The translations under genes and the position numbers were made by a program. A stretch of 64,000 bases of DNA from Escherichia phage HMD-6, in sequence record PQ505080.1; one strand, 5' to 3'. Under the pieces are notes generated by a model. The model was given only the letters and a program-made list of their open reading frames with translations. It did not search any database and was not told the origin of the DNA. Shown piece by piece: positions 41,715 to 47,351 of the stretch (the first letter of the stretch is position 1; every line of letters starts with the position of its first letter).

Positions 41715-44700
41715 ATGCTTCCAATCCCTTTGCTAAAACTTGGTCGTCATTTCCTCGATAAGAGGGGTGGAGTTAAGGAACTTGCTGTTCTGTCATACCC
41801 AATAGACAACAGTGACGGTACAAGCACTACAGTAGCTTATGTAAATAGCTTAGCTATACTTTTTGACAATGGTCAGCTTAATATTACGGGTTATAACAAG
41901 TTCGGGGAGTGTCGCACTGGGGATCGTAACCCTATAAACTACCCTAGCGAAACAGCCTGGAATGTTGATCATGTGTGGAGAGCAGACCGTGCGTTTGTGA
42001 TCCGGACTTTTGATAACCAGTTTTTCTACATCGGCTGCACTGCAGGTCTTATCGGATCCACTGCGGCAGGTGGTAATGATGTTTACGTAAACGAGTGGAC
42101 ACCTCTTCCTGAACAGATTGTTAAAGGGTTGCACCTTGACACCCACCCAGAGCGCCTTGTTGAGGTGATGGGAGGTATTAACAACACTGTTTGGGTTATT
42201 GCAGAGGCAGAAGGCACTGGCATTTTACACCTGTACGGATCTGGTAACAACACCTACGGATCTTTGCATGTGGATAAAAACCAGCATGCAACCCCTGTAA
42301 AGATTGGTGAAACATCTGAAAATCCTGAAACAGGTCCTTGGAAAAACCCAAGAATCAACTGTGAGGTGCATGATAACTCTGTTATTTTCGGTGGTCCTAG
42401 AGGTTTCTGGATTGCTGGGTACGACTTTCTGAGAAACAACAGTAGAAACGACCTTGTTTGGCCTCCTGCTCAGATTACCCGTGACGATTTGAGAGGTATT
42501 CCTGCAGATGAGGAGTGGAAAGGGTTCATGTGCGGTCCGAACGGGGCAGTGGTTGTAACACAAAGAATGCACAGACCTGATGACCAGCAGCTTGTTAACG
42601 TATTCTACGGGCAAGACGTTTGGGGAGATGATACATGGCGTGCCTTGAATATCACCTACACCCATGAGGTAATAATGGCTCGTGGGTACGGCACAAGTGG
42701 CATTTTCTTCAACAATGGCACTAAGCAGTACCGTGGATTCTCTCGCAACCTTTGCAATGATATTGGCGCACAATCCGCAAACAATAACCCTAGGGCCAAT
42801 TTTATCCACTATCAAGCCCTTGCCACAGCTAAATATGTTGAGCAACGACTGCCAGTCAGCTGGACAGAGAGTGTTTATTTCCAAGGCATTCACAGAGAAG
42901 GTTTTTTAGGGACCTTTACTGTTGTTAATGGTAAACTTTGGTGGTCAGGTATCCCAAGGGGAAGTTTTGCAGGCTCTAATAACCTGTTTGGCGGCAGACT
43001 TAATAGCCAAGGGTTCACGGAGGTCCCTGAGAATTGGTATAAAAATGTCCCAGTAGACAGTTGGGGTGTTGATGATATTTTCGACGTTAACGGTGTTAGC
43101 AGCGTTAGCAATATCTACATTGGGGATACGGTCAAGATGAAATTGAAGCCTCAGCCGGAGGGGGCTACGTTCATTATTGACAAGATTGAACTGGTAAATG
43201 CTGCAGGCACGGTTGTTACAGATGCAAATTACCAATTCTCCACCAACTGGAACCACGGTGGGGCCAACGAAGTTATTGTTACCCAGTATAACAGGAATGT
43301 TAACAGACGTGGACTGTACTCTGTAAAAATAACCTACCATGACAAGCATGGCACAGGTAGAACGCACACGACAAGGACTTTGAACTGGAACACCATAGTT
43401 CCTGCGTATCCTTCTGAAGGTAAGTGGCATACTGTTGGTAGAAATAAACAGTTCCATGTCAATGACACTGTATACTTTGGACTGAATGGGGCTCAGCCTG
43501 CAGTAGAAGGGGATACATCGTATATGGTCAGACTCCATAGAATGGATGCTGGATCAGTAACTTATGATGTTACCCAAGAGATTTATGATCAGCGACGAAA
43601 TACCTACAATAACTTGGTGCAGACGCAGGCCTTATGGGAGTTCAACCCCAACGGCAGAGGTGGTAAAATGCTGCAGATCAACGAACAAAATGGGACATCG
43701 TTGACTGTTCACGAACACTCAGACCCGTGGCCTGATCCTGGAAAACCTCACCCAGGTGCTCGTACACTAAAAATTGTCAGCCATGACGTAGGATATTTCG
43801 GAATACGCTGGGAAGCAACGGTAAGATATGCCGACGGGACGACAAACAATATTGGGATCACCCTTGGTGGCACTAGTGAGGATAACTCACTGAAAATTGC
43901 CTACACTCCTAGAGGCATTTCTATTGATAATATGGATGTTGTTCGCAACGGTTACGGGGATGTGAACATCAAAGTCACCCTTGGTGAACATCTTGGTGGG
44001 GAAAGAATCATCATGTATGCCTTTGATCATGACCCTCGCACCAACGGAACTTATGCAAACCAGGCATGGAGTTACCTGATAAACGCACCTGAGCCGAATA
44101 CTAAAGAATTCTACTATGGTATGAAACGAGATGTGTGCAAGAAAACAGGAACACACGACTGGATTGCGATCTGCGTTAAAGATGAGCGAACAGCTTGGGA
44201 TGAGCCTGTTAATAGATGGTTCATAGGTATTCCTACCAGAAGCGATAAGTATATCGCAGAATATATTGTGTGCATGGGCGGTACCAACCTAAATATGTGT
44301 TGGAACGAAGATGCAAACAAATACTCTGATTATGACTATATGAGAGATTACTCTTGTAATCAGTGGTTTAACCAATCGACAGGGTACCCTCCCCGCCAGG
44401 CTAGAGTAAACCCTGCAATCTTTACAGATACGCAGGTTTTCTTGACAAAACAGGCTAACGAGGTTCAGACCTTCAAGAACAAATACGACCCTAACAAGTG
44501 GTTTTATAACTGTTATGGCGCATTTTTCTGGGGTCCGGGGGAACTACCTGGCGGGGGATCTTGCTTCGAGTCTGCAACTTACGCCAGTGACTACATCATG
44601 GGGCAGGTTAAGAAGTATAAGATAATCCCCGGCCCTGAAACTTTGGGAAATGCCGTTGACCCTTATATCGTCATGACTGCGCTGAGATCAAACATGGATG

Positions 44701-47351: not shown

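Follow-up and report, generated by a model that had tools for sequence, protein, structure and literature searches.

The gp27-type protein of an rV5-like Escherichia phage: a possible low-copy accessory adhesin, probably expressed by read-through of a conserved terminator

The gp27-type gene and its surroundings

The window analyzed here, a stretch of 64,000 nucleotides from Escherichia phage HMD-6 (PQ505080.1), is that of an rV5-like Vequintavirus, and its largest ORF (41715..47351, plus strand) has an ATG start and encodes 1878 aa followed by a stop codon, the runner-up having 1479 aa. These boundaries agree with the original prediction, which had described the gene as the largest of the structural module and its last one, bracketed by terminators, and the read-out of ORFs, strands and hairpins bears this out: the gene is the final plus-strand gene of the tail-fibre module, and the coding strand switches directly after it. 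The features of the locus are compiled in Table 1.

The ortholog in rV5 is ORF27/gp27 (ABI79098.1, 208 kDa), which likewise has 1878 aa and shares 93% aa identity with the protein of the window. The gene is therefore already catalogued as that of the 208-kDa “gp27” of rV5-like phages, of which it is the largest gene with about 4% of the genome. It is functionally unstudied; there is no published function for any gp27 ortholog. In the rV5 paper (2013), the Big_2 domain and both flanking terminators of gp27 were already annotated, and the GenBank record of rV5 notes gp27 as ‘cell wall surface anchor’. In a PHROGs profile search, the match to phrog_15684 covered residues 1-1877 of 1878 with 4457 bits, and tblastn detected full-length orthologs (100% covered, 89-97.5% aa identity) in more than 100 phage records. 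Full-length collinearity as well as synteny thus place the protein in the Vequintavirus gp27 group (phrog_15684). The order of a gp28 homolog, the gp27-type gene and a bidirectional terminator is found in Vequintavirus, Phapecoctavirus and Seunavirus. A horizontal transfer of the gene was considered and rejected, as its G+C content (0.45-0.46 across the gene) is like that of the remaining window.

Table 1. Features of the gp27-type locus (positions in the window)
Feature	Position	Strand	Remarks
Nearest upstream match to the rV5 late-promoter core (TGTTAAAATA)	38552..38561	+	equivalent to rV5 P030; putative operon start
gp28-like fibre gene, 581 aa	39921..41666	+	upstream partner of the gp27-type gene, conserved in all lineages
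Upstream terminator-like hairpin and interrupted T-tract TTTTCTTATCT	41674..41704	+	= rV5 t028; abuts the RBS
Shine-Dalgarno GGAG	41705..41708	+	6 nt before ATG; GGAG kept in all lineages
gp27-type ORF	41715..47351	+	rV5 ORF27 ortholog; phrog_15684 end to end; omega 0.058-0.087
aa 1-225, M-x-P-x-P N-terminus and about three RCC1-like blades	41715..42389	+	sole cross-genus module; putative virion-anchoring end
Presumed rest of propeller, aa 226-445, diverged	42390..43049	+	variable at aa 200-350
Orphan middle, aa 446-1399	43050..45911	+	lineage-restricted; mostly beta; helical at about aa 1178-1320; non-repetitive
Probable FN3/Ig-like beta-sandwich domains, aa 1400-1675	45912..46739	+	weak evidence
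Big_2 Ig-like domain, aa 1676-1750	46740..46964	+	Pfam match aa 1682-1733 = nt 46758-46913
Hypervariable C-terminal domain, aa 1751-1878	46965..47348	+	two allele types; putative ligand-binding tip
Bidirectional terminator AAAAA-GGGGCC-GTTT-GGCCCC-TTTCTTTTT	47361..47397	.	= rV5 t026/t027

Flanking terminators and transcription

Both flanks of the gene carry what characterizes intrinsic terminators, namely a G+C-rich hairpin with a T-tract in an intergenic position. The upstream hairpin (41674-41695) consists of a 9-bp stem with 6 G-C pairs and a tetraloop, and its fold has a dG of -17.1 kcal/mol (z -3.8). The downstream hairpin (47366-47387) also has a 9-bp stem with 6 G-C pairs, and the convergent minus-strand genes use the same terminator, a bidirectional arrangement that is also annotated in PVP-SE1 and HdK5. 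The count of terminator-like sites in the whole region is not above chance (8 vs 6.2 +/- 2.9 expected), and we regard the two flanking hairpins as real because they are the strongest ones, intergenic, independently annotated in rV5 and HdK5, and kept in position across lineages. At the upstream hairpin, 7 of the 9 pairs are changed on both sides across lineages while the hairpin is kept, and the layout of a hairpin followed by the RBS recurs before the gp27-type gene in four lineages, with different stems.

The gene had been proposed to form its own transcription unit, and the junction gives no support to this. The stop codon of the gp28-like gene (41664-41666) is followed by the hairpin with its T-tract (41674 to about 41704), the GGAG (41705-41708) and the ATG at 41715. 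The stem ends at 41695, i.e. 19 nt before the ATG, and as these 19 nt are made up of the T-tract, the Shine-Dalgarno sequence and a 6-nt spacer, there is no room for a promoter between the terminator and the gene. The rV5 late-promoter core has no match within 40283-41714, and the promoter list of the rV5 authors contains none for gene 27. The only sigma-70-like match before the gene (41613-41641) was judged to be due to chance, as it precedes the hairpin and is not retained in relatives. No promoter was thus found between terminator and start, nor a conserved one just upstream, and the same layout is present in four lineages. With the hairpin abutting the RBS and no own or conserved promoter, expression of gp27 would have to come from terminator read-through. 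Judged from the sequence, the gp27-type gene is predicted to be the distal, attenuated member of a late operon that begins near position 38552, and the upstream hairpin probably serves as a leaky attenuator controlling how much gp27 is made. The T-tract is interrupted, which is consistent with the partial termination predicted at this site.

Domain architecture of the gp27-type protein

The N-terminus had been predicted to contain RCC1-like blades, and this was corroborated, although the signal stays below the thresholds of Pfam. With the curated cutoff as criterion, the RCC1 models PF00415, PF13540 and PF25390 were considered; PF25390 aligned to aa 44-197 with E=2.6e-5 and 24.2 bits against a cutoff of 150, and RCC1_2 reached E=0.024 and 14.9 bits against 22. 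Profile methods do support RCC1 homology: the N-terminal module matches phrog_4219 (‘regulator of chromosome condensation’, E=1.6e-7), and hhalign of aa 44-225 against homologs that possess a cutoff-passing RCC1 repeat gave 99.2% probability and E=3e-19. The PF00415 cutoff of 21.7 bits is indeed passed by PVP-SE1 gp40 (36.1 bits) and phAPEC8 (24.3-29.7 bits). In addition, the top 41 PDB matches of a Foldseek search were all RCC1-type propellers, aligned over about 165 columns (about three of the seven blades of a closed propeller) at a TM of about 0.25, with a low-confidence model (pLDDT 35.4) as query. The RCC1-like signal of aa 44-225 is therefore sub-threshold in Pfam yet corroborated by four independent lines. 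In tblastn searches, aa 1 to about 197/225 match the ‘tail protein’ of phAPEC8-like phages, GAP31 and PVP-SE1 at 30-39% identity, and the module matches phrog_11922 (‘tail protein’, E=2.6e-26). It is the only part of gp27 that is conserved in the proteins of other genera (PVP-SE1 gp40, phAPEC8-like “tail proteins”). The following segment may complete the propeller: aa 226-431 have scattered invariant columns in common with phAPEC8-like proteins, and the presumed propeller length agrees with the 361-aa RCC1 match in PVP-SE1 gp40, while the hhalign alignment of aa 226-445 alone was not significant.

The long middle region has hardly any relatives. An exhaustive HMMER search with these approximately 950-1100 aa gave 2 hits among 1.84 billion proteins, no match was found in Pfam, NCBIfam or PDB, and homolog searches with the gp27-type protein returned almost nothing outside the phage family itself. 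Internal domain repeats were not detected by segment-against-segment hhalign. Within this region, aa 901-1190 form a second variability hotspot with 24% variable sites. For aa 1400-1675, FN3/Ig-like domains are suggested by strands of moderate pLDDT in a low-confidence model and by low-TM Foldseek matches to FN3, S-layer and adhesin domains; the intimin profile match reaches aa 1624. The AlphaFold2 models of aa 1-1150 and aa 1100-1878 had mean pLDDT values of 35.4 and 36.0, based on alignments of 7 and 4 sequences, and are unusable for domain boundaries or the oligomeric state, so that Foldseek matches obtained with them are weak corroboration only. At a mean pLDDT of about 35, the stalk, the oligomeric state and the fold of the tip remain hypothetical.

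The Big_2 domain expected near the C-terminus is significant and lies above the curated cutoff of Pfam: PF02368 matches aa 1682-1733 with E=4.6e-9 and 36.5 bits in the whole protein and with 40.9 bits in the isolated segment (cutoff 22.8). When PDB sequences were searched with the family profile, only the Big_2 segment matched clearly (intimin Big_2, E=2.5e-4), and NCBIfam gave nothing useful. The NCBIfam intimin models reached 24-25 bits (24.9 vs 2050) against cutoffs of 1400-2050, covering about 40 residues of one Ig domain, and an ‘intimin domain’ label thus reflects one Ig domain only. RCC1 and Big_2 are absent from all seven other large proteins of the module, in agreement with the original prediction that this protein is unlike the other fibres. 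Conversely, the gp27-type protein has no fibre-type Pfam domain, whereas two of its neighbours do (Tail_spike_N, J-like tip).

The last 128 aa are by far the most variable part of gp27, with 38% variable sites in clustered, loop-like patches and with indels. The allele of the window is a ‘type A’ tip, as in rV5, EmilHeitz, FV3, WM and HdK5, and a ‘type B’ tip is carried by MaxBurger, FFH2 and magaca. Windowed omega at the C-terminus ranges from 0.33 to 1.6; as these values were obtained in short windows with two classes of alleles, their elevation could reflect recombination instead of positive selection.

Selection and disrupted alleles

Intact alleles are under strong purifying selection, with an omega of 0.058-0.087 against 8 orthologs at dS up to 0.89, and the gene is intact in more than 100 genomes. 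Nevertheless, disrupted copies occur in at least 8 of about 113-120 sequenced isolates, part of which could be sequencing or assembly errors: deletions in APECc02 and V18, frameshifts in naswa, YP-6 and JES2013, and nonsense codons in magaca, ECP26 and phita32. A truncation by change of Tyr617 to amber (TAG617) is recurrent, being present in magaca and ECP26, and leaves a stub of the size of PVP-SE1 gp40. Suppression of this amber codon was rejected as an explanation, as the tRNA-Tyr of magaca has the normal GTA anticodon and there is no tRNA with a CTA anticodon. An apparent small paralog comprising the C-terminal 294 aa (P0007, APECc02 ‘gp174’) turned out to be a piece of the gp27-type gene itself in disrupted form, with one matching place per record, and the window contains no second copy of the gp27-type gene.

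Dispensability for adsorption had been named as an outcome that would speak against an adhesin. The disrupted alleles in propagating isolates do in part indicate that the gene is dispensable, but they argue for an accessory role and not against an adhesin.

Virion association and possible function

Both rV5 gp27 and PVP-SE1 gp040 are listed as virion proteins detected by MS. The identification of rV5 gp27 is weak, as it depends on three peptides, all of them non- or semi-tryptic, with 9 spectra vs 2030 for the capsid protein, and a non-structural-looking locus is present in the same data at similar quality. In cryo-EM of the close relatives Bas49 and Bas54, only three fibre densities are seen near the baseplate, none of which is assigned to a gp27-type protein. 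The known receptors have been assigned to other fibres than gp27, and it has been stated to be unclear which genes build which of the many fibres of rV5-like phages.

What alternatives exist for a role as accessory adhesin? The BASEL annotation ‘lateral tail fiber protein with intimin domain’ implies a lateral tail fibre of the usual homotrimeric kind, or its distal part, that would act as one of the host-range-determining receptor-binding proteins. Maffei et al. indeed place gp27 among three large fibre genes with allelic variation, the gene follows a fibre gene within the fibre module, and the conserved N-terminus and variable C-terminus resemble those of classical receptor-binding proteins. 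However, searches of Pfam, PHROGs and PDB sequences revealed no fibre modules (tailspike N-domain, beta-helix, coiled coil, S74 chaperone, J-like or T4-like tip), there is no adjacent chaperone gene, as the downstream genes are convergent small ORFs, only three fibre densities are seen in Bas49/Bas54, and several isolates can dispense with the gene. RCC1 propellers and Big_2 domains are typically monomeric modules, which also counts against a trimeric fibre, and we consider such a fibre unlikely.

A head or neck decoration protein like Hoc or pb10, which would sit on the capsid with its Ig-like domains pointing outward, would equally be dispensable and would agree with the presence of Big_2, with the match of the C-terminal 290 aa to phrog_215 (‘structural protein with Ig domain’, category ‘head and packaging’) and with a weak profile match to the capsid decoration protein 9kmh gp29 (E=0.25). 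Yet the phrog_215 match concerns mainly the generic Big_2 segment and possibly fragments of the gp27 gene itself, the cross-genus homologs fall into the ‘tail protein’ family phrog_11922, the gene belongs to the tail-fibre module and is a long way from the head genes, and in rV5 the decoration role is already filled by the abundant gp61 (1077 spectra vs 9 for gp27). A Hoc-like role would call for a capsid-binding domain, a location in the head module and a high copy number; with a generic Ig similarity, a tail-module location and few spectra, it is very improbable. The third alternative, a late protein that acts in or on the infected cell as surface or lysis-time factor, would make the MS hits false positives, in line with the marginal data for rV5 and the non-structural-looking locus of similar quality, with the missing cryo-EM assignment in Bas49/Bas54, with the note ‘cell wall surface anchor’ in the rV5 record and with the dispensability of the gene. 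It is at odds with the predicted co-transcription with fibre genes in a late structural operon, with an N-terminal module from a family labelled tail protein, with the MS-confirmed phrog_4219 RCC1 proteins in virions of phage W70, with the listing of PVP-SE1 gp040 as virion protein, and with the N-conserved, C-variable pattern that is typical of virion receptor-binding proteins. We therefore regard it as quite unlikely. The original prediction had left open whether the protein is an adhesin or a non-structural accessory protein: an accessory adhesin is consistent with all findings, and the non-structural option is disfavoured and keeps some probability because the MS identification in rV5 is weak.

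The reading that we prefer, and to which we would give about even chances, is that gp27 is a low-copy, non-essential, adhesin-like appendage at the tail periphery of the virion, anchored by its N-terminus and variable at its distal tip. The adhesin aspect is based on the Big_2 domain, the RCC1-like blades, the strings of Ig/FN3-like domains, and the conservation of the N-terminus together with the variability of the C-terminus. The RCC1-like module would dock on the conserved baseplate/fibre scaffold, possibly via the always-adjacent gp28-like fibre, and about 1200 aa of distinct, mostly beta domains would form an extended stalk. Big_2 and the variable tip may then bind a variable surface ligand weakly and reversibly, e.g. 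a host glycan or gut polymer, and thereby raise adsorption on natural hosts, and the leaky terminator would keep gp27 at a much lower level than the upstream fibres. For growth on laboratory K-12, gp27 may not be needed, as the NGR-binding deacetylase fibre together with the LPS-core-binding short fibres would suffice, and loss-of-function alleles could survive or even be favoured. Comparable laboratory losses have occurred with the side tail fibres of lambda.

A bolder version, which we hold to be rather doubtful, is that gp27 represents an undescribed class of appendages, a monomeric “tentacle” of about 208 kDa that docks with an RCC1-type propeller, consists mostly of domains without detectable relatives in 1.84 billion proteins, is dosed via a conserved leaky terminator, and is selected in the gut, where its hypervariable tip would contact mucus or variable host glycans, but counter-selected in the laboratory. 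Such counter-selection, if true, would account for the large number of broken alleles and for the repeated change of Tyr617 to amber.

These considerations matter because rV5-like phages count among the E. coli phages that are isolated most often, and they are candidate agents in therapy and biocontrol. If gp27 is an accessory adhesin that laboratory culture regularly eliminates, adsorption and host range may not be the same in K-12-grown stocks as in the wild phage. Moreover, the conserved layout of terminator and RBS is a simple, testable case of stoichiometry setting within a fibre operon.

Comparison with known systems

The closest counterparts are rV5 gp27 and its Vequintavirus orthologs, which have the same position, the two flanking terminators and Big_2, with allelic differences only. 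PVP-SE1 gp40 (604 aa) and the phAPEC8-like ‘tail proteins’ of 859-891 aa (phrog_11922) are positional homologs that also follow a gp28 homolog, with a hairpin abutting the RBS before the gene and a bidirectional terminator after it, and they have the N-terminal RCC1-like module and Big_2 domains in common with the gp27-type protein. In contrast to gp27, their RCC1 repeats pass the Pfam cutoff, they have only one third to one half of its size and possess neither the orphan middle of about 950 aa nor the variable C-terminal domain, their ends being formed by DUF285 or LRR-like modules instead. Beyond the shared N-terminus, the family diverges to lengths of 1878, 1936, 891 or 604 aa, with C-termini that include DUF285, LRR-like or none.

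RCC1-like propellers occur in the phrog_4219 proteins of other Vequintavirinae and jumbo phages (W70_237-239, phAPEC6 paralogs), which are MS-confirmed virion proteins and have speculatively been tied to DNA condensation. These are stand-alone propellers of about 40 kDa encoded elsewhere, whereas in gp27 the propeller-like module forms the N-terminus of a giant protein from the tail module. Virion-displayed Ig-like domains are known from T4 Hoc, T5 pb10 (Fraser et al. 2006) and Sf14 gp20, which are described as laboratory-dispensable and presumed to confer weak adherence to carbohydrates or surfaces. They are small (about 20-40 kDa), capsid-bound, high-copy proteins; gp27 differs in having 208 kDa, a tail-module location, an apparently low copy number, a propeller-like N-terminus and many non-Ig domains. 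As to bacterial adhesins, gp27 has, by Pfam, no beta-barrel, LysM or lectin domain like intimin and is not repetitive, but with intimin/invasin and giant Ig-repeat adhesins such as SiiE it shares the Big_2 similarity and the long, beta-rich multi-domain build.

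Gene identity and genomic context

The window comes from an rV5-like myovirus of the genus Vequintavirus, and 120 phage records match the gene region, with VB-EcoM-WM reaching 95.6% DNA identity. No ORF in the window is larger than the gp27-type gene, whose G+C content is unremarkable. It closes the tail-fibre module as its final plus-strand gene, with convergent genes downstream. It is already known and widely sequenced, being orthologous to rV5 ORF27/gp27, whose product (208,334 Da) is equally long and 93% identical in amino acids. The ORF, its size, its position and the two flanking terminators of the original prediction were all confirmed, and most of this physical description has been in print since 2013 for phage rV5 (PMC3606486). 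The present analysis adds an inferred polarity with an RCC1 anchor and a variable tip, a stretch of about 1000 aa nearly without relatives, a conserved attenuator layout, and a measure of how often the gene is disrupted, with one amber codon recurring. Two annotation matters may be mentioned here. Fifteen to sixteen records, MG0656xx (e.g. A147, A135, A142, C9, D#), are named 'Campylobacter phage' with C. jejuni as host; over the gp27-type gene they share 91-95% identity with rV5-like phages of E. coli, and the host labels look doubtful. A 178-aa ORF antisense to the small convergent genes has no annotation in relatives and is probably spurious.

Features of the gp27-type region and of disrupted alleles (window positions, unless a relative's DNA record, L0nn, is given)
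Feature	Position	Strand	Remarks
Perfect copies of TGGTAAAATA	6435, 11598, 26711, 32221	+	
1279-aa protein	28318-32157		lambda-J-type: Phage_Tail_Tip E=2.4e-38, Ig_J_second E=1.2e-30
Deacetylase fibre, 690 aa	34451-36523		N4 gp65-type non-contractile-sheath TIM barrel, E=2.6e-80
gp28 stop codon	41664-41666		
Upstream hairpin terminator	41674-41695		strong, intergenic, rV5 t028
Shine-Dalgarno GGAG	41705-41708		ATG at 41715
gp27-type ORF	41715-47351	+	ATG start, 1878 aa
Downstream hairpin terminator	47366-47387		strong, intergenic, rV5 t026/t027
rV5 gp26 homolog	47398-47598	-	
178-aa ORF	47452-47988	+	probably spurious
rV5 gp25 homolog	47602-47979	-	
APECc02 allele	L006 4019-6691		about 2.9 kb of the gene missing (aa ~440-1416), plus frame changes
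V18 allele	L007 2128-6690		two internal deletions, several frameshifts
naswa, YP-6, JES2013 alleles			single frameshift each
phita32 allele			CAA>TAA, codon 1439
magaca, ECP26 alleles	L010 1949-1951, L024 1949-1951		TAT>TAG, codon 617 (window equivalent 43563-43565)

Flanking terminators and expression

Both flanking terminators were annotated independently in rV5 and HdK5, while terminator-like sites as a whole are no more numerous in the region than expected by chance. The interrupted T-tract TTTTCTTATCT behind the upstream hairpin runs straight into the Shine-Dalgarno sequence, and there is no room for a promoter between the hairpin and the start codon. The rV5 late-promoter core TGGTAAAATA occurs in the window more often than expected (17 matches with at most one mismatch versus 5.8; 0 of 100 shuffles reach 17), and its four perfect copies lie 15-50 nt upstream of structural gene starts, but no copy occurs in 40283-41714. 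Among the sites with one mismatch, that at 38552, equivalent to rV5 P030, is the nearest plausible late promoter upstream of the gp27-type gene, and the promoter list of the rV5 authors has no entry for gene 27. The lone sigma-70-like match (41613-41641) lies inside gp28, upstream of the hairpin, and was rejected as a gp27 promoter, as it drifts in relatives like ordinary coding sequence. The gene is therefore not a transcription unit of its own, as had been supposed, and must be transcribed by read-through of the conserved upstream terminator, which is probably leaky. In the simplest case, this terminator would keep the dose of the gp27-type gene lower than that of the fibre genes before it.

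The junction has the same layout in all four lineages, consisting of stop codon, 8-9-bp tetraloop hairpin, short T-tract, GGAG and ATG, and yet the stem sequences differ, with 7 of 9 pairs altered on both sides. In the alignment, 98% of cells are paired versus 41-69% in slid controls, a count that is fitted to the structure, as the hairpin cores were picked by eye. Each lineage's hairpin folds at -14.9 to -19.1 kcal/mol (z -2.7 to -4.5). The uncultivated sister lineage of Vequintavirus (L017-L020; IMG/VR sample 3300045988, contigs of 118-141 kb) keeps the order of hairpin and ribosome-binding site with a completely different stem sequence. The downstream hairpin has an A-run on one side and a T-run on the other, and serves both convergent directions.

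Domains and relatives of the gp27-type protein

The expected Big_2 domain near the C-terminus is the sole significant Pfam match (aa 1682-1733, E=4.6e-9, above cutoff), and matches to PDB sequences (intimin, S-layer protein) fall only on it. The expected RCC1-like N-terminus stays below the Pfam cutoff (PF25390, aa 44-197, 24 bits versus 150, E=2.6e-5), but it is backed by PHROGs matches to phrog_4219 'regulator of chromosome condensation' (E=1.6e-7) and phrog_11922 'tail protein' (E=2.6e-26), by hhalign, which at 99.2% probability aligns aa 44-225 with the N-terminal ends of PVP-SE1 gp40 and phAPEC8-like proteins, whose own RCC1 repeats are above Pfam's cutoff, and by Foldseek, whose 41 best PDB hits are RCC1-type propellers without exception (poor model, about three blades aligned). 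Length and scattered conserved columns hint at a possible closed seven-bladed propeller over aa ~40-445. From aa ~446 to ~1400, no match was found in Pfam, NCBIfam or PDB sequences, PHROGs returned the gene's own family only, and internal repeats were not found. An exhaustive HMMER search with aa 450-1649 against 1.84 billion representative proteins gave one full-length relative (46% identical) and one fragment. The distal ~480 aa look, on weak evidence, like a string of FN3/Ig-type beta-sandwiches. With so few homologs available, two AlphaFold2 runs reached a mean pLDDT of only ~35.

Relatives over the full length occur only in Vequintavirus and the sister group (1935-1936 aa, ~46-62% identity; ~70% in the N-terminus and ~46% in the middle). 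Outside this group, only the first ~197-225 aa recur, at 30-39% identity, in a phAPEC8-like 891-aa protein, in Cronobacter GAP31-like phages and in PVP-SE1 gp40 (604 aa).

Selection and broken alleles

Strong purifying selection acts on intact alleles over the full 5.6 kb (omega 0.058-0.087), yet eight or more deposited genomes have disrupted copies. Sequencing errors may account for some of them, but this is unlikely for kilobase deletions and substitutions to stop codons. The V18 record (129-kb genome) has further signs of an assembly that is degraded or rich in errors. The amber codon 617 is shared by magaca and ECP26, isolates from different countries in which it stands on different backgrounds, 92.9% identical over 900 nt around it, and the nearest relative of each has TAT; the product would have 616 aa, close in size to PVP-SE1 gp40. 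No tRNA able to suppress amber codons turned up in magaca. Its tRNA cluster (Arg, Tyr, Ser, ???, Thr, Met, Pro) includes a 99-nt odd tRNA, assigned by ARAGORN a four-base anticodon (atcc) and listed in GenBank as 'tRNA-OTHER' (L028 44570-44668).

Published receptors of rV5-like phages are the NGR glycan, bound via the deacetylase fibre, and the LPS core, bound via short fibres. Besides the TIM barrel, the window's deacetylase fibre has an N4 gp65-type N-domain and a Calx-beta domain. It is homologous to the NGR-glycan-binding protein, the primary receptor binder according to the literature. The 1279-aa protein is annotated elsewhere as a lateral tail fibre with an FN3 domain. Its lambda-J-type domains, here in a myovirus, are better known from central tail fibres of siphoviruses. 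Taken together, purifying selection, broken alleles and receptors bound by other proteins point to a gp27-type protein that matters in nature, yet is dispensable, and perhaps counter-selected, on laboratory hosts.

Possible roles of the gp27-type protein

The mass-spectrometric identification of rV5 gp27 is weak, as it consists of three peptides that are non- or semi-tryptic and have low ion matches, and of 9 spectra versus 2030 for the capsid protein, and a 660-aa locus without a structural look appears at similar quality. In cryo-EM of the close relatives Bas49 and Bas54, only three of nine annotated fibres were found near the baseplate, none assigned to the gp27-type protein, while structures of phi92, from a different genus, leave one fibre without a gene assignment. 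Virion association is likely from the context, and a non-virion late protein appears improbable. Within a virion, the protein could be a canonical trimeric lateral fibre, which we consider unlikely, and a Hoc-like decoration of the head is very improbable. The interpretation given with the original prediction finds partial support. An adhesin, as it proposed, but in an accessory role, is the most likely reading, and we give about an even chance to a low-copy adhesin at the tail periphery that is dosed by read-through. In such an adhesin, the N-terminal RCC1-like module would act as anchor, the long orphan middle would form the stalk, and Big_2 and then a hypervariable tip would lie at the distal end. 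If this is a monomeric appendage of a new kind, the finding gains interest.

Virion receptor-binding proteins usually have a conserved N-terminus and a swappable, variable C-terminus, and by this analogy the N-terminal module may serve as anchor and the C-terminal domain as the tip that binds a ligand. Variation within Vequintavirus is concentrated at aa ~200-350, at aa 901-1190 (24% variable sites) and most of all in the last 128 aa (38% variable sites, windowed omega 0.33-1.6), where two allele types are distinguished by loop-like patches and by indels. Swapping of distal modules is clear within the phAPEC8-like genus, where near-identical proteins with a propeller and two Big_2 domains end either in DUF285 (P0003, E=1e-42) or in an LRR-like Cys-containing repeat (P0004/P0005). 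The phAPEC8-like, GAP31-like and PVP-SE1 homologs occupy the same position as the gp27-type gene, as the fibre module's last gene after a gp28 homolog and before a bidirectional terminator, and likewise combine propeller and Big_2, but they carry other C-terminal modules, DUF285 or LRR-like.
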